From: an uncultured Gemmatimonadales bacterium
Lineage (GTDB): Bacteria; Gemmatimonadota; Gemmatimonadetes; Longimicrobiales; RSA9
Assembly (NCBI GenBank): GCA_963798845.1
Contig: CAWCUS010000001.1
Span: 544,001-608,000 of the forward strand
DNA: 64,000 bases
Direction: 5' to 3'
Below the pieces are notes generated by a model. That model saw only the letters and a list, made by a program, of their open reading frames with translations. It was not told the DNA's origin and searched no databases. A program made the position numbers and the translations under genes. Shown here piece by piece: positions 3,088 to 10,445 of the stretch (position 1 is its first letter; each line of letters starts with the position of its first letter).

Positions 3088-4113
3088 CTACTGCCGCTCC
3101 ACCGTGACCAGCCGGTTCACCGTGTTCGGACCCTCGTTCTCCTGCACCAGCCCCACGCCCCGGCAGTACAGCTTGGTCTCCCGGACGGTCGGCTCCAGCG
3201 GGGTGGTGTCCACCGTCCTGATGCAGTCGCTGAAACTGCCCTGGGGCACCGTGGCGGACACGTTCAGCGCTGCCACCCGCCCCTGGTCCTCCGCCACGCC
3301 TCTGCGGTACTCCTGCCGGTACGCCTGCCCCACGGACGGGTTAGCCGGCATGATGAGTCCCGGCTTCGCCCCGGCCTCGCCCGCCTGCCACGAGCCGGAT
3401 GTGGAGACCACACGGCCATTCTCCAGCTCCCGCGCGTCCTCGCCCAGGTACCACACGTTGCCCGCCCGGTCCTGGGCGTACCAGTCGTACGTCTCCTCCG
3501 CCAGCGCGCCGTCCCCGTCGTACTCCCGGTCCAGCACCACCGTGGCCGCGATTCCCTGGATGTCCTTCGTCTGGCCCGTCACCGTGACCACGTTCTTCTC
3601 GCCGTTCGTGGACTCGTAGCGGTAGACCGTCCCCGGCGCCAGAGGAAAGTACGGGTTGTCCACACCGGCGACGAACTCGCGGGCGACGACGCCGGGCTCG
3701 TACGGCTCCGTGACCGGCGCCGGCGTGGCCGCGGGCGCGGCCTCGCCGGCCTCGCCGACTTCGGCAGCTTCCCCTGCCTCATCGGCTTCCCCGTTCTCGC
3801 CGGACTCCTCCGCCTTCTCGGCCGCCTCATCGGCCGCTCCCTCGTGCTCGCGCGCCAGGACCTTCCCGGTCACCGCGTCCACGTGGACCTCCTCAACCCC
3901 GGGCTGGCCGGCGGCCACGAGGTCGTAGGAGTAGATCCACCGCCCGCCCTCGTGCTCCAGCTCCTGCCCCTTCACTGTGGCCCCGGGGACCACAGCCAGT
4001 GCGGCGGCGCGCGCGCTCGGCTCCGGTATGCGGTCCTCCGGCGGGTTGCCGGCGCAGGCCGAAAAAGCGAGCAGGACGGCTGACATGGACGCGACCTGTG
4101 CCATGCTCCTCAT
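3088..4113 (-). CDS. PepSY-domain lipoprotein fused to an uncharacterised beta-rich domain
   Basis: ATG at 4113 with CAGGAG RBS; lipobox 'FSAC'; PepSY 'ELEHEGGRWIYSYDL...EVHVDAVTGKVL'; acidic linker; C-domain 'DNPYFPLAPG...DWYAQDRAGNVWYLGED'. Confidence 0.75.
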   Translation of the reverse strand: MRSMAQVASMSAVLLAFSACAGNPPEDRIPEPSARAAALAVVPGATVKGQELEHEGGRWIYSYDLVAAGQPGVEEVHVDAVTGKVLAREHEGAADEAAEKAEESGENGEADEAGEAAEVGEAGEAAPAATPAPVTEPYEPGVVAREFVAGVDNPYFPLAPGTVYRYESTNGEKNVVTVTGQTKDIQGIAATVVLDREYDGDGALAEETYDWYAQDRAGNVWYLGEDARELENGRVVSTSGSWQAGEAGAKPGLIMPANPSVGQAYRQEYRRGVAEDQGRVAALNVSATVPQGSFSDCIRTVDTTPLEPTVRETKLYCRGVGLVQENEGPNTVNRLVTVERQ

Positions 4114-4169
4114 GATTCCGCTCTCCTGTGATGTTCCCAGTGTTCCCGGGGCCAAGATAGCGGCCGCCT

Positions 4170-4357: not shown

Positions 4358-5389
4358 ATGAAGCGTTTCCCGGCACTCGTGCTGGTGCTCTCCCTCGCCG
4401 CCACACTCGCGCTCCCCCGCCCGGCCGCACCGCAGTCCGGGCCCTACCAGGTCACCCGTCATGTCCAGCTCGGCGGCGACGGCGGCTGGGACTACATCAC
4501 CGTGGACACCGCCGGCAACCGGATCTTCCTCACCCGCTCGGACCGCGTCATGGTGGTGGACCAGAACTCCCTGCGACTGATCACGGAAATCCCCGGGCTC
4601 CAGCGCGGCCACGGCGTGGCGCTGGCGTACGCGGCCGGCCACGGCTTCGTCACGTCGGGTGCGGACAGCACGGTGACCATGTTCGACCTGCGGACGCTGG
4701 AGGTGCTGGGCACCACCACGGCCGGCGTGGACGACGACGCCGTCCTCTTCGACGCCGCCTCCGACCACGTCTTCACCTTCAACGGAGACGCCCACTCGGC
4801 CAGCGTCATCGACCCCGTGAGCGGCGAGCGCGTCGGCACCATCCCCCTGGGCGGCAAGCCGGAGTTCGGAGTGAGCGCCGGCAACGGGAAGGTGTACGTG
4901 AACATTGAGGACCGGAGCGAGGTGGTGGAGATCGACGCCAGGGCCATGAAGGTGATGCGCCGCTGGTCGCTGGCGCCGTGCGAGGAGCCGAGCGGCCTCG
5001 CCATCGACGTCGCCCACCACCGGCTCTTCAGCGTCTGCCACAGCCGGGTCATGGCCATCTCCGACGCCGACGCCGGCAGGGTGGTGGCCACGGTCCCCAT
5101 CGGCGCCGGTGTGGACGGCGCACGCTTCGACCCCGGCACCGGCTATGCCTTTGCGTCCAATGGCGATGGCACGCTCACCGTGGTGCACCAGGATTCGCCC
5201 GACGCGTACCACGTCGTGCAGAACGTGGCCACCCTGCCCGGCGCCCGGACCCTGGCCCTGGACGCGCGAACGCACACGGTTTATACGGTGAGCGCGAAGT
5301 TCGGACCGATGCCGGAGGGGGAGGGCCGCCGACGTCCGCCGCTGGTTCCGGGGTCATTCGAGCTCATGGTGATCACGCTCCAGCCGTAG
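4358..5389 (+). CDS. YncE/YVTN-type secreted beta-propeller protein
   Basis: Signal peptide; 'GGDGGWDYITVD', 'HGVAL', 'LGGKPEFGV', 'CEEPSGLAID', 'GARTLALD' repeats. Confidence 0.88.
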   Translation: MKRFPALVLVLSLAATLALPRPAAPQSGPYQVTRHVQLGGDGGWDYITVDTAGNRIFLTRSDRVMVVDQNSLRLITEIPGLQRGHGVALAYAAGHGFVTSGADSTVTMFDLRTLEVLGTTTAGVDDDAVLFDAASDHVFTFNGDAHSASVIDPVSGERVGTIPLGGKPEFGVSAGNGKVYVNIEDRSEVVEIDARAMKVMRRWSLAPCEEPSGLAIDVAHHRLFSVCHSRVMAISDADAGRVVATVPIGAGVDGARFDPGTGYAFASNGDGTLTVVHQDSPDAYHVVQNVATLPGARTLALDARTHTVYTVSAKFGPMPEGEGRRRPPLVPGSFELMVITLQP

Positions 5390-5399
5390 CCCCGGCTGT

Positions 5400-5650
5400 C
5401 GCACGGCGGCCACTCCCGCACTCCCCGCTGCGCCGGAGCGTGTCGCCGTATGCGAGCAGCCCGTTCGCGTCCTGCCGCATGGTGGTAGGAGACAGGCTCG
5501 AGACTCAACCCGGCCGCCAGGGACCCGCGCCAGCGCCGTGGCCCTGGCCTTGGCCTCAGGAACCGTGTGGCTCGCCCCCTGTCCATGCACCGGCCCCGCC
5601 AGCGTGAGGGCGGCGACCACCGGGGCCGTAAGCGTCCCGATCCGTCTCAT
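5400..5650 (-). pseudogene. Degenerate PepSY-like secreted protein (paralog of 3088-4113 N-terminus)
   Basis: AGGAGG RBS, signal peptide, and 'VPEAKARATALARVPGGRVES', similar to 'IPEPSARAAALAVVPGATVK'. The reading then breaks; another frame gives 'QDANGLLAYGDTLRRSGSAGVAAV'. End coordinate is approximate. Confidence 0.5.
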
Positions 5651-5684
5651 GCGCCTCCTCCTGGTCCTGTAATCTGGACCCCAG

Positions 5685-6785
5685 CCTCGGACCAGGTTTT
5701 CCCTTTCCGTTTTGGCCGGAAATGCTATGGCAACGCCCTGGCGGAACCGGCATCATCGGCCCATGGGAAGACATAAGAGGGCCCACGCCCCGGGCATGCT
5801 ATTCCACCTGGTTTCGCGGACCCACCGCGGTGAGCGCTGGTTCGTTCCCGAGCTCCGGGACCGGTTCACCCGACTGATCCCGGCCGTCGTGAGCCGGACC
5901 GATGCGCGCTTACTGGCGTTCGCCGTGATGCCGAACCACCTCCACATCCTGCTGCGACAGGGGGAGATGCCGCTGTCGGCGTCGATGCAGCCGCTGGTGC
6001 GCCGAGTCGCCTACAGGGTCCAGCGCCACCACGGCATCGAGGGCACTGTCGTCGAGCGACGGTTTCGGGATCGGCTCTGTGAGAGTCCGGACCATGCGCG
6101 AGAGGCGCTGATGTACGTGCATCTCAACCCATGGCGCGCCGGGCTGTGCGGCGGAACCCTCGACTACCCGGGAACGACTTACCGGGCCTATCTGCCCGGC
6201 GCCGACCCCGCGGCTTTCGGCATCGCCCCGGAGGCCCAACGCCTCATGCTCGAACTCTTCGCCCTCACTCCCCGCGCGACGCGGGATGATCTGTGTCGCG
6301 ATCACCTGGTCTGGCTGCGGGACCGCATGACACGCGATATCCGGTGGAGGGCCGGTATTTCGGACTCGGGTAGCCCTGAGTCCGACATCGCGCCCAGTTC
6401 CCTGCACTCCGGCCACGGCGACGCCGCCTGGCTCCGCCACTTCGCCGCTCACGCAGACCGGGCGCGGAACGCCATCCGTCGCCCGCGCCTCGACCTGCGC
6501 GACCGTGTCATGGCCGAGCTGACCCGGGCCGGCGAAGGCGCGACGCTCGACCAGCTTCGCGGTTCCTGGCTGTCGCGTCCGCTCGCCCGCATGCGAGCGC
6601 GGGTCATTCGTGGCCTCAGCGACGACGGGTACCGGACCGGCGATCTTGCACGGCTCTTCGGCACAAGCCCGACCACCGTGTCCCGGGCGAAATACGGGTA
6701 TCCCGCCGCCCCGTAGCCTTCGCCAACTGCAGCGGCCTCGGCCGAGACCGAGGGCGCAAGCGGAAAAGGGAAACGTGGTCCGAGG
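5685..6785. mobile_element. Putative Y1/HUH (RAYT-like) element bounded by 25-bp imperfect inverted repeats
   Basis: 5685-5709 CCTCGGACCAGGTTTTCCCTTTCCG versus reverse complement of 6761-6785 CCTCGGACCACGTTTCCCTTTTCCG (22/25 identical), enclosing only the transposase gene. Confidence 0.65.
5763..6716 (+). CDS. Y1_Tnp / REP-associated tyrosine transposase-like protein with C-terminal HTH
   Basis: 'FHLVSR', HUH motif 'VMPNHLH', 'RF' motif, catalytic 'YVHLNP..AGL'; C-terminal 'GDLARLFGTSPTTVSRA' helix-turn-helix. Confidence 0.88.
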   Translation: MGRHKRAHAPGMLFHLVSRTHRGERWFVPELRDRFTRLIPAVVSRTDARLLAFAVMPNHLHILLRQGEMPLSASMQPLVRRVAYRVQRHHGIEGTVVERRFRDRLCESPDHAREALMYVHLNPWRAGLCGGTLDYPGTTYRAYLPGADPAAFGIAPEAQRLMLELFALTPRATRDDLCRDHLVWLRDRMTRDIRWRAGISDSGSPESDIAPSSLHSGHGDAAWLRHFAAHADRARNAIRRPRLDLRDRVMAELTRAGEGATLDQLRGSWLSRPLARMRARVIRGLSDDGYRTGDLARLFGTSPTTVSRAKYGYPAAP

Positions 6786-6788
6786 GTG

Positions 6789-7346
6789 CTACCCCCTGCT
6801 CAGCCCCAGCTCATCGCTGATGTCCCGCATGGCCGCGATGACATTGCCCACGTGCTGGTCGAAATCGATGCCGATGAGCTCCGCCCCCCGCTCCACGTCG
6901 CCGCGGTCCACGCCGCGCGCGAACGTGGAGTCCTTCATCTTCTTCTTCACCGACTTGGGCTTCAGGTCGTCGATGCCGTTGGGGCGGACCAGGGCGGTGG
7001 CGGTGATGAGGCCGGTCAGCTCGTCGCAGGCGACGAGCGTGCGGTCCAGCCTGGTCTCCGGCTCGACGCCCGTGAAGTCGCTGCGGTGGGCCAGGATGGC
7101 GTGCAGCACCGGCTCCGGATAGCCGCGCTCGCGCAGTGCGTCCACGGCCCGGAGCGGATGCTCGTCCGGGTACTTCTCCCAGTCCAGATCGTGCAGCAGC
7201 CCGGCCAACCCCCACAGGTCCTCGTCCTCCCCTTCCATGCGCGCGTAGCTCCGCACCGCCGCTTCGACCGCCAGCATGTGCTTGCGCAGGTTCACGTTCT
7301 CGACCCACTCCTCCAGCAGCTGCACCGCTTCCGCGCGATCCGGCAT
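6789..7346 (-). CDS. HD/HDIG-domain metal-dependent phosphohydrolase
   Basis: 'NLRKHMLAVEA', 'GLLHDLD', 'AILAH', 'ACDELTGLI', 'KKMKDSTFARGVDR'; GAGGAG RBS. Confidence 0.9.
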   Translation of the reverse strand: MPDRAEAVQLLEEWVENVNLRKHMLAVEAAVRSYARMEGEDEDLWGLAGLLHDLDWEKYPDEHPLRAVDALRERGYPEPVLHAILAHRSDFTGVEPETRLDRTLVACDELTGLITATALVRPNGIDDLKPKSVKKKMKDSTFARGVDRGDVERGAELIGIDFDQHVGNVIAAMRDISDELGLSRG

Positions 7347-7511
7347 GGTCCCGACTCCTCGCTCCGAAGGGCCCGCGGCCCCGACAATGAAGGATGGAAG
7401 ATGTGGGCAGGCTCCGGCCAGGGCAAAACACCCGGCGAGGACGTGGCGGCGCGCCGGAGCCTGGCTCGCCACGCGTGGGCGTGGCACGTCCTGCGGCAAC
7501 CGGACCTCCCG

Positions 7512-9747
7512 TCAGCCTGCGAACGTCTCCAGCAGACGTTTCAGCACGTCCGGCTCCGTCACGGGCGAGGCACAGCTCCGACCTGCGCACACATACGCGC
7601 GCGGCGCTTCTCCGGTGACCATGGCGCGGAGCACGTCGGGAAGCGTCGCGCCTCCGGCGACGCCGCCGTCCGTCGTCGCCGCACCCGCCACCTCCGGCGC
7701 CAGCCGCCGGACCACCGTGGCGGGCCGCGTGGCGCGGAGCGCGGCATCCAGCAACGGGCCGCGTCCGTCCTCGCCCGGCTCCTCCACCACGACCACCGTC
7801 GTGACCGGCCCGGTAGCCCATCGGAGGGCACGGAAGTACGTGGAGGCGCTGGCCGCGAACTGCGGCGCGGAGCCGGCGTAGGCGCGCAGGACCCCGGCGG
7901 CGGCGGCGGCCAGCGCCGGGTCGTCGCGGAGCGCGGCCAGGCGAGAGAACGCCATGGCGGCCACGGCGGTCGGCGACGGCTCGGGCGAGTCCGCGATCTC
8001 GAAACGGCCGTGGCGGAGCAACGATGGGCCGGCGGCGCTCCTCCGCGGCGTCGTCAGCGTCCGCGGCGGCGCCTCCATCATCGTCGGCTCCGGCCGGGCG
8101 GGCGGGGAGGTCGAGAAGCGCGCCGGACGAGTGGGCGAAACGGCGGCGGATGACCTCCACGACGGCGGCCGCGCGCTCCAGCCACCGCTCCTCCTGCGAC
8201 CACTCGAACGCGTCCAGCATTGCGGCGGCCGCGTGTGCCTGATCGGGCAGGTGCACGCCGGAGTCGGGGTCGCCGAGTCGGTGGCGGAAACCCCGGCCCG
8301 AGACCCACGCCTCCGCCCAGACCCGCTCCAGCGCCCGCAGCGCGGCCTCCCCCGCGCCGTCGATGCCCAGCCAGCGCGCCGCTGCGAGGTGGCCTGACGC
8401 GACGAGTGAGACCCATCCCGCGTAGAGGCTCTCGTCCACGTAGGGACGCGGACGCCCGTCGCGGGCCTCCTTCAGCGCTTCCCGGGCCGAGGCGAGCAGC
8501 GCCTCCACTTCCTCGGCGGGGCGCTCCACCCGCCTCGCCACGCTGGCCATCGACGTGGCGCGGAAGAGCACGTGGCGGCGAGGATCCAGGTGCATGGCGC
8601 CAGCCGGATCGTCGAAGCCGAAGCGGAAGCGGACCGCCAGCGCAGCCGTGGCATACACGTCCTCGCCGATCGCCGCGGCCATTTCCTCCACGGTCCAGGT
8701 CCAGTAGTCGCCATCGTCCTCAGGGCCGATGTCCGCGTCCTGCGATGCCGGGAAGCCGCCCGCCTCCACGAGCGCCGGGGCGACGTCGCGGTAGTAGCCC
8801 ACGATCCCCTCCGCCGCTGCGGTGAATTCCGCATCACCGAAGAGCGCCGCCGCCCGCGAAAGCACTTCGAGCAGTGGGCCGTTGTCGTAGGCCATCTTCT
8901 CGAAGTGCGGGATGATCCAGCGGGCATCCGTGCTGTAGCGGTGGAAGCCGCCGCCCAGCTGGTCGTGGATGCCGCCGCCCACCATGGCGGCCAGCGTCTC
9001 CCGGACCATGGCGCCCGCAGCGCTCGCCCCCGCGAGCCCGCCCGGCTCCCCGCCACTGCCCCCACGATCGCCTTCGCCTGGAGCTTCCGCCGCCCGGTCC
9101 AGAAGCAGCGCCAGGCTGCCGACGGACGGGAACTTGGGCGCCCCGCCGAAGCCGCCGTGGGCGGCGTCGTAAGCCCGGGCGAGCGCCTGGATGGCCTCGT
9201 CCACGAGCCCGGGCCGGAGCTCGCCCGGCGACGCTTCGGCCGAGAGCGACGAAGTGAGCCGCTCGCGCACCGCCGCGGCCGCCTCCATCACCCGCGACCG
9301 CTCCTCCTTCCACACCCGGGCCACCGCCTGGAGCACGCGCCGGAACGAGGGTCGGCCATGGGCATCCTCCGGCGGGAAGTACGTGCCGCCGTGGAAGACC
9401 TCGCCGTCGGGAGTGAGGAAGGCGGTGAGCGGCCACCCGCCCTGGCCCACCAGAGACTGCACGGCGCGCTGGTAGCGCGCATCGACGTCCGGCCGCTCGT
9501 CCCGGTCCACCTTCACCGGGACGTACAGCTCGTTGATGAGCGCGGCCGTGTCCGGATCCTCGTAGCTCTCCCGGTCCATGACGTGGCACCAGTGGCACCA
9601 CACCGCGCCGATGTCGAGGAGGACGGGGCGGTCGGCCTCGCGGGCCAGGCGGAACGCCTCGTCGCCCCACGGATGCCAGCGCACGGGTTGTTCGGCGCCA
9701 TGGCGGAGGAACGGACTCGCGGCGCCGCCGAGCGGAGAGTCGCTCAC
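7512..9747 (-). CDS. Thioredoxin-domain protein, DUF255/YyaL/SPATA20 family (frameshift near 8040)
   Basis: 'SPFLRHGAEQPVRWHPW', 'WCHWCHVMDRES', 'GGWPLTAFLTPDG', 'PHFEKMAYDNG'; C-terminus in a second frame 'ADSPEPSPTAVAA...AYVCAGRSCASPV'. Confidence 0.88.
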
Positions 9748-10445
9748 GCCACCCTCGCGCTCGGGCAGAGGTCGAACAGGACGCAGGCGTCGCACAGCGG
9801 GCTCGGCGCCTTGCACACGGCGCGGCCATGGAAGATGAACAGGTGCGGCAGGGCGGTCCACGATGCTTTCGGCACCAGGGCGACGAGGTCCTGCTCGATC
9901 TTCTCGGGCGCGGTCTCCGCCGTGAGCCCCAGGCGGCCCGAGAGGCGCTTCACGTGGGTGTCCACGACCACGCCCTCGTCCTTGTCGAATGCGTTGCCCA
10001 GCACGACGTTCGCCGTCTTGCGACCGACGCCCGGCAGCTTCGTCAGCTCCGCCATGCTGTCCGGAATCCGGCCATCGTGCCGCTCCACCACGGCATCCGC
10101 CATCCCCAGCAGGCTCTTCGTCTTCTGCCGGAAGAAGCCCGTGGAGCGGATCAGCTCCTCCACGTCCTCCGTCTTCGCCCCGGCCAGCTCCCTCACAGTC
10201 GGGTAGCGACGGAAGAGCTCGGGCGTGACCATGTTCACCCGCTCATCCGTGCACTGCGCGGACAGGATGGTGGCCACCAGCAGCTCGTACGGATTGGCGT
10301 GTTCCAGCGACGTCGCCGCGTCGGGATACTCCTCCCACAGGCGACGGACGATCTGCTCGACCCGCTCCGCCTTCTCCGCCTTCTTCTCGCCCACGAACCG
10401 GCGGCCGGCGGGCGTCTTCGCCGTCTTTCGCTTGGTCTCGCTCAT
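9744..10445 (-). CDS. nth: Endonuclease III
   Basis: 'LVATILSAQCTDERVN', HhH 'LPGVGRKTANVV', 'VDTHV', 4Fe-4S motif C-x6-C-x2-C-x5-C; ATG overlaps the PolX stop. Confidence 0.97.
   Translation of the reverse strand: MSETKRKTAKTPAGRRFVGEKKAEKAERVEQIVRRLWEEYPDAATSLEHANPYELLVATILSAQCTDERVNMVTPELFRRYPTVRELAGAKTEDVEELIRSTGFFRQKTKSLLGMADAVVERHDGRIPDSMAELTKLPGVGRKTANVVLGNAFDKDEGVVVDTHVKRLSGRLGLTAETAPEKIEQDLVALVPKASWTALPHLFIFHGRAVCKAPSPLCDACVLFDLCPSARVA

Follow-up and report, generated by a model that had tools for sequence, protein, structure and literature searches.

How a single-strand HUH nuclease acts on terminal inverted repeats (TIRs) that look like duplex DNA sites, and what a DnaA-like tail on such a protein recognizes, is the mechanistic question raised here by a gene for a 317-residue Y1 transposase from an uncultured Gemmatimonadales bacterium (assembly GCA_963798845.1, contig CAWCUS010000001.1, positions 544,001 to 608,000). 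The whole stretch of 64,000 nucleotides (nt) is called the window below, and all copy counts given for the window cover these 64 kb. The TnpA proteins of IS200/IS605 use subterminal hairpins, and classical RAYTs use GTAG-tagged repetitive extragenic palindromes (REPs). The original prediction from this DNA was that the gene and the repeats around it may form a HUH element of 1.1 kb, with repeat units that are not palindromes and lack GTAG. Comparison of six loci, in which no conserved hairpins were found, bears out a discrete unit of ~1.1 kb that is neither an IS200/IS605 element nor a GTAG-type REPtron.

We conclude that the window unit is a discrete TIRtron of ~1.1 kb. In the best explanation, it is very probably a single-copy chromosomal gene for a RAYT-like Y1 HUH protein that carries its own recognition DNA as inverted repeats at its ends. 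The class was expected to be poorly described, and it is; it is not nameless, however. RAYT-like genes with long TIRs were named TIRYT, and the units TIRtrons, by Di Nocera, De Gregorio & Rocco (2013, BMC Genomics 14:522; PMC3733652), and 20 of 26 TIRYTs were assigned to subclass 2.1 by Quentin, Siguier, Chandler & Fichant (2018, BMC Genomics 19:475; PMC6006769). In the literature searched, the name TIRYT occurs only in these two papers and TIRtron in one, with biochemistry in neither, and queries that combined RAYT with "terminal inverted repeat" or with "Gemmatimonad" turned up nothing about a CGGACCNSG family among the matches listed. The string "gemmatimon" does not occur in the available text of the first paper, and neither "Gemmatimon" nor "TIRYT" is present in two text supplements of the second; as far as the text of the second paper and these supplements show, its sample did not include the family. 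What is new here is a large family from Gemmatimonadota/Longimicrobiales metagenomes with a tip of its own, CGGACCNSG.

Conserved ends of the unit

The 25-bp inverted repeat on which the original prediction was built was re-read as identical at 22 of 25 positions, and a repeat search extends its arms to 36 nt at 81% (Table 1). This 36-nt pair is the longest among 43 inverted pairs in the interval 5400–7000. For each locus, the best upstream/downstream pair was scored against 200 shuffles of the upstream flank, and the score of the window arms was matched by none of them. Exact matches of CCTCGGACCASGTTT in the window are confined to the two flanks of the gene. With two mismatches allowed, one more site appears at 4758 (0.30 matches expected; three or more in 1 of 100 shuffles). 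On direct reading the arms are not palindromic and lack GTAG, and no target-site duplication is visible at the ends of the unit, all as first described. A CTAC directly beyond the right arm (6789–6792) is the stop codon of the neighboring gene.

A scan of genome contigs returned at least 78 loci, of which, among the matches listed, only five (L001–L005) cover the full length of the query. Together with the window they provide six full-length loci with DNA, three of which (L003–L005) are orthologous; the proteins of L001–L005 are 34–49% identical to the window protein. At all six, the best upstream/downstream inverted repeat is an arm that begins CGGACC-N-S-G, and CGGACC is unchanged in all 12 arms. 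The left tip lies 74–79 nt upstream of the ATG (75 nt for the C of the window tip), the right tip follows in inverted orientation 66–111 nt past the coding region, and the tips are 1,067–1,135 bp apart. The arm score was reached by no shuffle in the window, L002 and L005, by one in L004, by four in L001 and by 14 in L003. Over the first 30 nt, left and right arms agree at 24–26 positions in the window, L002 and L005, compared to 12–21 between loci. The inner arms differ across loci and, at three loci or more, match each other within the locus. Flanking repeats in homologs, on which the original prediction depended, are therefore present at six of six loci with an invariant tip; the expected co-variation is partial, with arms that are in part locus-specific, and is modest once the tip is set aside. 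The left end also holds a block (5724–5739) with columns invariant in 6/6 loci of the left-end alignment, which may be a promoter or leader, or a second binding site.

Ends formed by hairpins were considered and dropped. When the ends were folded as single strands, each on both strands, z-scores relative to shuffles were −0.28 to −1.13, and consensus folding, done for the six left ends and for the six right ends, gave an energy of about zero with no conserved pairs. The two small hairpins pointed out originally (Table 1) are present; they fold no better than shuffles and are not conserved. The 9-nt core is not enriched in the window (29 found, 29.3 expected). The 24-nt arms of each locus, searched with up to 6 mismatches, have no additional copies in the window or in L001–L005, and the non-autonomous copies that had been envisaged were not found in these sequences.

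Exact tip copies are located just outside one end of L002 (3263–3271 and 3284–3292) and of L004 (5939–5947 and 5959–5967). The left end of L002 carries a tandem duplication of ~21 nt that comprises flank and tip, and the right end of L004 one of 20 nt (AATAGCC-N-CGGACCTGGCTT) that takes in the rplI stop codon. Over the 12 ends, two exact extra CGGACCNSG occur within 30 nt, with ~0.16 expected as a rough figure from the window frequency. Either activity or replication slippage may have left these copies behind. L003 also has a palindrome at 3113–3165 (24-nt stem, 5-nt loop, 79% complementary) that overlaps its right arm in the inner half. This palindrome is reminiscent of the "double palindromic" TIRs named in the legend to Figure 9 of Di Nocera et al. 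(PMC3733652), and consensus folding found it not conserved at the other loci.

The protein family

The window protein contains MPNHLH (H59 and H61) and YVHLNP (Y118), and matches Pfam Y1_Tnp with 29.4 bits (cut-off 23). Together with a three-helix tail in the AlphaFold2 (AF2) model, this agrees with the gene as originally read, a Y1_Tnp with a C-terminal helix-turn-helix (HTH). With the NCBIfam model transpos_IS200 the protein reaches 17.8 bits, the cut-off being 55. A search of 5.8 billion protein clusters identified 64 near-full-length relatives (E ≤ 5.8e-71, 46–59% identical), the closest non-self protein being ~58% identical. The few relatives with a name belong to metagenome genomes of Longimicrobiales or Gemmatimonadota, and six rows are annotated "REP element-mobilizing transposase RayT". 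When 1.84 billion cluster representatives were searched with a profile, 286 clusters (50% identity) matched at E ≤ 1e-30, and among the 150 best matches nearly all span almost the whole protein. PHROGs returned a single weak "transposase" match (E 0.0064) and PADLOC no family.

The family alignment comprises 44 of the 70 protein-search matches, short, truncated and self matches having been dropped. H59, H61, Y118, H120, L121 and N122 are invariant in 44/44 sequences. HTH_23 is matched by 25 and HTH_28 by 19 of the 44 (E ≤ 0.01), and the residues of the HTH recognition helix hardly vary across the family. Between the two ends of the protein lies a long, well-conserved helical region (residues ~140–260).

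The AF2 model of the full-length protein is confident (predicted local distance difference test [pLDDT] score 91.3, predicted template-modeling score 0.76). Its best fold match in the PDB is 4er8_A, the E. coli RAYT in complex with a REP hairpin (E 2.6e-6, template-modeling score 0.67 on the target, 158 columns), followed by the TnpA structures of ISDra2 and IS608 at E ~3e-4. A sequence search of the PDB with the single protein reached only E 0.14 at best; with a profile, ISDra2 TnpA was found at 5.9e-4, 4er8 at 7.4e-3 and the CENP-B HTH at 0.52. In the tail, helices are predicted at residues 272–287, 292–299 and 303–311 with pLDDT ~90–95. The top fold match of the tail is a DnaA DNA-binding domain, 3pvp (E 0.038, probability 1.0, root-mean-square deviation 1.1 Å over 54 columns), and a further one is 1j1v (probability 0.96). 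A reading of the duplex ends by this HTH would be plausible. A homodimer prediction from two copies with an alignment scored 0.00, which is evidence neither way.

A perfect DnaA-box consensus, TTATCCACA, which fits TTWTNCACA, is found on the minus strand of L003 (3133–3141) and L005 (1955–1963), in both cases between the stop codon and the right arm of these orthologous loci. These are the only two TTWTNCACA matches in the 88,492 bp of the window and L001–L005. L004 has none at the homologous position, and the window has none. Their presence is curious given the DnaA-domain-IV-like tail, but the two boxes count as one evolutionary event.

Genomic context and mobility

L003, L004 and L005 occupy one site, with the order rsfS, gene, rplI and both flanks in common. 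Translations of the flanks are 80–93% identical among them, whereas the TIRYT proteins are just 58–67% identical; in this clade, either the unit is fixed and fast-evolving, or one site has been targeted repeatedly. In the window, the gene stands between a PepSY remnant and an HD-domain gene, and the flanks of the window, L001 and L002 are shared with no other of the six loci. Fixed synteny, which would have spoken against a mobile unit, is thus seen in part: three of six loci share a site, and the window, L001 and L002 stand apart.

The window contains no paralog of the gene. Among 72,556 plasmid records there is no full-length relative; eight matches cover 40–57% of the query from its N-terminus. 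The GC content of the unit (0.67–0.71) resembles that of its surroundings (0.68–0.77), with no compositional anomaly. As there is no paralog in the 64 kb, nothing above ~58% identity, no plasmid copy and a host-like GC content, the unit looks like a low-copy, long-resident and seldom moving element, and not like an active insertion sequence (IS). Low copy number has been described for class 2 genes (PMC6006769).

The right tip lies 2–6 nt from the point where a convergent gene stops in the window (6782–6791), L003 (3185–3190), L004 (5967–5973) and L005 (2007–2014). This gene encodes an HD-domain protein in the window and is rplI in the other three, so that only two contexts are independent. 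The extended right arm of the window ends immediately before the stop codon (6789–6791). Since the right tip sits at the convergent stop codon, the neighbor's terminator must be within the unit. Most simply, the hairpin at 6736–6753 would be terminator-like and common to the two convergent genes.

Other features of the window

The features of the locus are collected in Table 1. Beside the extra inverted core outside the left end, there is a degenerate direct tip copy at 5676–5684; the inverted core overlaps the Shine-Dalgarno region of the divergent neighbor. A scan for sigma-70-like promoters found no site. No terminator-like site was found on the strand of the gene; two lie on the opposite strand inside the gene start. 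Rfam gave no match.

Table 1. Features of the unit and its immediate flanks (window coordinates)
Feature	Position	Strand	Basis and remarks
Small hairpin GGTCC..GGACC	5663–5680		Direct reading
Extra inverted 8-nt core CCTGGTCC	5660–5667	−	21 nt outside the left tip; may be chance
Left terminal inverted repeat	5685–5709	+	Tip CGGACCAGG at 5688–5696; weaker complementarity over 5682–5717
Left-end-only conserved block GCTATGGCAACGCCCT	5724–5739	+	Family consensus GCCATGGAAACGCCCC; ~24–39 nt before the ATG
TIRYT gene, 317 residues	5763–6716	+	Open reading frame (ORF) translation; Y1 HUH N-terminal half (~1–160), helical middle, C-terminal HTH
HUH motif codons H59-L60-H61	5937–5945	+	Read from the sequence; H59 and H61 invariant in 44/44
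Tyr118 codon (YVHLNP)	6114–6116	+	Presumed catalytic nucleophile; class 2 signature Y---NP (PMC6006769)
C-terminal three-helix HTH, residues 272–311	6576–6695	+	AF2 helices; HTH_23/HTH_28 matches in the family
Small hairpin CCTCGG-N6-CCGAGG	6736–6753		Between stop codon and right arm; not conserved in relatives
Right terminal inverted repeat	6761–6785	−	Tip CGGACCACG (minus strand) at 6774–6782; extended arm 6753–6788

A 98-residue ORF (5354–5650, minus strand) is divergent to the left end. It begins like a signal peptide, includes a short stretch that resembles PepSY, has no Pfam match at E ≤ 0.001, and overlaps the 3′ end of a β-propeller gene (4358–5389); it is probably a gene remnant. A complete PepSY gene is located at 3088–4155 (minus strand). 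On the other side, 6811–9861 (minus strand) and overlapping frames form very long ORFs on both strands at ~70–77% GC. The N-terminal part of the 1016-residue frame at 6811–9861 may be a thioredoxin-fold (DUF255-like) protein, and the remainder looks like a frame artefact.

Proposed mechanism and alternative explanations

In the TIRtron explanation, the HTH, with its DnaA-domain-IV-like fold, would bind the 9-bp tip as duplex DNA and thereby position the HUH domain. One strand would then be nicked and rejoined at or near each tip by Tyr118, with H59 and H61 holding a metal. As the ends are inverted, opposite strands would present the same polarity. A promoter or leader is probably also part of the left end, which would account for the fixed spacing of 74–79 nt, and the protein could repress its own gene, as is known for many insertion sequences. 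The unit would move rarely in its lineage, long-resident and low-copy like RAYTs and not proliferating like an IS. A further suggestion, which we hold to be possible but rather doubtful, is a hybrid mode that is not known from HUH proteins: the DnaA-domain-IV-like HTH would dock on duplex 9-bp tips, so that a single-strand nuclease acts on TIRs of classical appearance, the ends would be kept matched by concerted evolution, and the unit would be a resident, self-maintaining cassette that stays for long at one site near ribosome genes (rsfS / rplI), with a host-level role and not a parasite.

Several observations weigh against the TIRtron explanation. With the tip taken out and gaps permitted, arms agree at 24.5 of 36 positions on average within a locus and at 20.7 between loci, a modest co-variation; the window (22), L001 (21) and L003 (22) do not exceed the between-locus maximum of 27, and only L002, L004 and L005 stand out. 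Since three of the six loci with DNA are orthologous, they amount to about four independent observations. On the protein side, both HTH_23 (19.8 bits over residues 275–310, cut-off 24.6) and HTH_28 remain under the Pfam gathering scores for the window protein, and the nearest NCBIfam model, the RAYT model REP_Tyr_transpos, reaches 60.6 bits with a cut-off of 80. Modeled alone (C-terminal 106 residues, 6-row alignment), the tail has a moderate pLDDT of 76. The fold search with the tail gave no match at E ≤ 0.001, the DnaA-like matches (E ≥ 0.038) being non-significant, and the DnaA-like tail is therefore a lead and no proof. DNA binding and cleavage by the predicted HUH-HTH protein are inferred from sequence and model. 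Finally, only 5 of 8 positions match between CGGACCNSG and the published motif GGGGWSAS, so that kinship of the two is not established.

The 43 short inverted pairs in 1.6 kb could be taken to mean that the repeat arose by chance in GC-rich DNA. This can practically be discounted: no shuffle of 200 reaches the window score, the same tip recurs at the same position in 6/6 loci with proteins as divergent as 34–49% identity to that of the window, and the conserved arm alignments together with the shuffle scores refute it. It is very improbable that the unit is a classical REPtron, a RAYT with palindromic REP/REPIN units in hundreds of dispersed copies. The nearest NCBIfam model and the nearest solved fold are those of RAYTs, and inverted flanking repeats are found with REPs too. 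The arms, however, are not self-complementary, lack GTAG, fold no better than shuffles and share no consensus structure; the core is present at its expected frequency in the window and no more arm copies were found there or in L001–L005. Palindromic GTAG/CTAC arms were seen at L040, L044, L056 and L078 in the scan of flanks. An active autonomous IS of a new type, in which a Y1 transposase with TIRs moves the 1.1-kb unit and may mobilize TIR-only derivatives, would fit the discrete ends, the constant unit length, the separate flanks of the window, L001 and L002, and the exact extra tips just outside one end of L002 and L004. Most relatives lie on short contigs, and TIR families are moderately abundant in some genomes (PMC3733652). 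Short contigs are, however, usual in metagenome assemblies, and there is neither a second gene nor a further arm copy in the window and L001–L005, no non-self relative closer than ~58%, no full-length plasmid-borne relative and no deviation from host-like composition; moreover, L003–L005 share one conserved rsfS/rplI site. We regard an active IS as quite improbable.

Improbable, too, is a domesticated HUH-HTH gene that no longer cuts, with repeats that are only regulatory, as an upstream operator and a downstream terminator or mRNA-stabilizing partner. Such a gene would be consistent with the fixed distance of the left tip from the ATG, the block conserved at the left end only, the synteny of three loci, the lack of dispersed copies in the window and L001–L005, and a right arm that adjoins a convergent stop codon in the window and L003–L005. 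Yet none of the 44 sequences departs from the HUH histidines or the tyrosine, which argues for retained catalysis. The 9-nt tip is kept inverted 66–111 nt past the coding region in 6/6 loci, which a terminator does not need. No RNA or DNA structure is conserved at the ends, and no terminator-like site was found on the strand of the gene. A TIRtron remains the preferred explanation. For the question of how an HUH nuclease handles duplex-like TIRs and what its tail recognizes, the CGGACCNSG family offers a clean test case, with an invariant 9-bp tip, fixed spacing to the ATG, nearly invariant recognition-helix residues, a confident model and a large, diverse family. For annotation, the gene and its ends deserve one unit label instead of a lone "transposase".

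Comparison with known systems

The tail invites comparison with DnaA domain IV. 3pvp and 1j1v are the top fold matches of the C-terminal 106 residues, the DnaA box has the same length of 9 bp as the invariant tip, and for the relative L008 the Bac_DnaA_C model gives 27.2 bits (cut-off 31.5). In contrast, the window protein itself has no Pfam match to Bac_DnaA_C, the E-values of the fold matches are non-significant, and the box consensus TTWTNCACA is unlike CGGACCNSG.

With the TnpA proteins of IS200/IS605 (IS608, ISDra2) the window protein shares the HUH/Y1 fold, and the unit shares the lack of a target-site duplication. These elements, however, have subterminal hairpins in direct orientation that are read on one strand, are multicopy, often include tnpB, and have the class 1 tyrosine motif. 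None of this was observed for the window unit, which has no conserved hairpins, encodes 317 residues compared to ~130–150 for TnpA, and is represented by a single gene in the window. The E. coli RAYT (4er8) is closer: it is the best structural match to residues ~1–160, and has the HUH/Y1 chemistry and inverted flanking repeats in common. It consists of ~165 residues without an HTH and recognizes a GTAG-tagged hairpin, whereas the window protein is twice as long and its arms are non-hairpin and GTAG-free. GTAG palindromic REPs in many copies, as in a REPtron, are not found, with dispersal judged within the 64 kb.

Subclass 2.1 comprises long class 2 proteins (Y---NP, low copy) with a C-terminal Bac_DnaA_C, HTH_23 or HTH_28 and without REPs; whether this tail reads the TIR was left open by Quentin et al. 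(PMC6006769). The window protein has the class 2 features Y---NP (YVHLNP) and HuH with a hydrophobic middle residue (HLH; u = L). Its copy number looks low, with no paralog in the 64 kb and no relative above ~58% identity. It is long (317 residues) and has an HTH_23/HTH_28/Bac_DnaA_C-like tail, the HTH matches being sub-threshold for the window protein itself, and no REPs are nearby. The long conserved helical middle (~140–260) of the CGGACCNSG family is a difference. As a proxy for subclass 2.1, distinct from the authors' own MCL/tree procedure, a crude neighbor-joining tree was calculated in Biopython with 100 bootstraps from 45 of 79 sequences, the other 34 loci being omitted by choice without a formal rule. 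Flank labels on the tree were assigned by eye; L036 and L043 are labeled GTAG-REP, yet carry ATAG. The family is recovered in 100/100 bootstraps, and joins L008, the Roseateles loci and L007, which are HTH-bearing or TIR-flanked, in 82/100.

L008 (330 residues) is flanked by the repeats GGGGTCAG, which bear GGGGWSAS. Alignment to the family profile with hhalign covers residues 1–190 with a probability of 98.5% and leaves the tail unaligned; for L007, residues 3–143 are covered and the tail is likewise unaligned. Non-palindromic GGGGWSAS repeats occur at L008 and at the Roseateles/Mitsuaria loci L010, L012, L013, L015, L017 and L023 (233–236 residues), and a GGGGGTCGG variant is present in the flank repeats of the Acidobacteriota loci L019, L035 and L053. 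The scan of the flanks of the other 73 loci that yielded these repeats served as a positive control and also found palindromic GTAG/CTAC arms at short RAYTs, for example at L040, L044, L056 and L078. L007 (1654–2346) encodes an Actinomycetota Y1 protein of 230 residues with a tail that is sigma-70 region-4-like or HTH_23. Its flanks carry a partly palindromic 33-nt repeat, GTGAAAGATCGGGATCCGATCCCTTTCTTTCAC, with a score of 28 compared to a shuffle maximum of 12.5. L007 is a further HTH-bearing, TIR-flanked variant.

The closest counterparts are the TIRtrons themselves. GGGGWSAS is common to most of the published TIRs and lies at a similar distance from the gene, and other TIRs are unrelated to it; TIR repeat families occur in some genomes only and are moderately abundant there (PMC3733652). 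The tip CGGACCNSG fits 5 of 8 aligned positions of GGGGWSAS and does not contain the motif, which does not define the class, since the same source states that other TIRs are unrelated to it. At 6/6 loci, as in the published units, a RAYT-like Y1 HUH protein with the HUH and tyrosine motifs is encoded between long inverted repeats that are unrelated to GTAG REPs and that lie at a nearly constant distance from the gene. The low copy number is shared as well, and some of the published examples are without any dispersed TIR family, as is the unit described here within the 64 kb.

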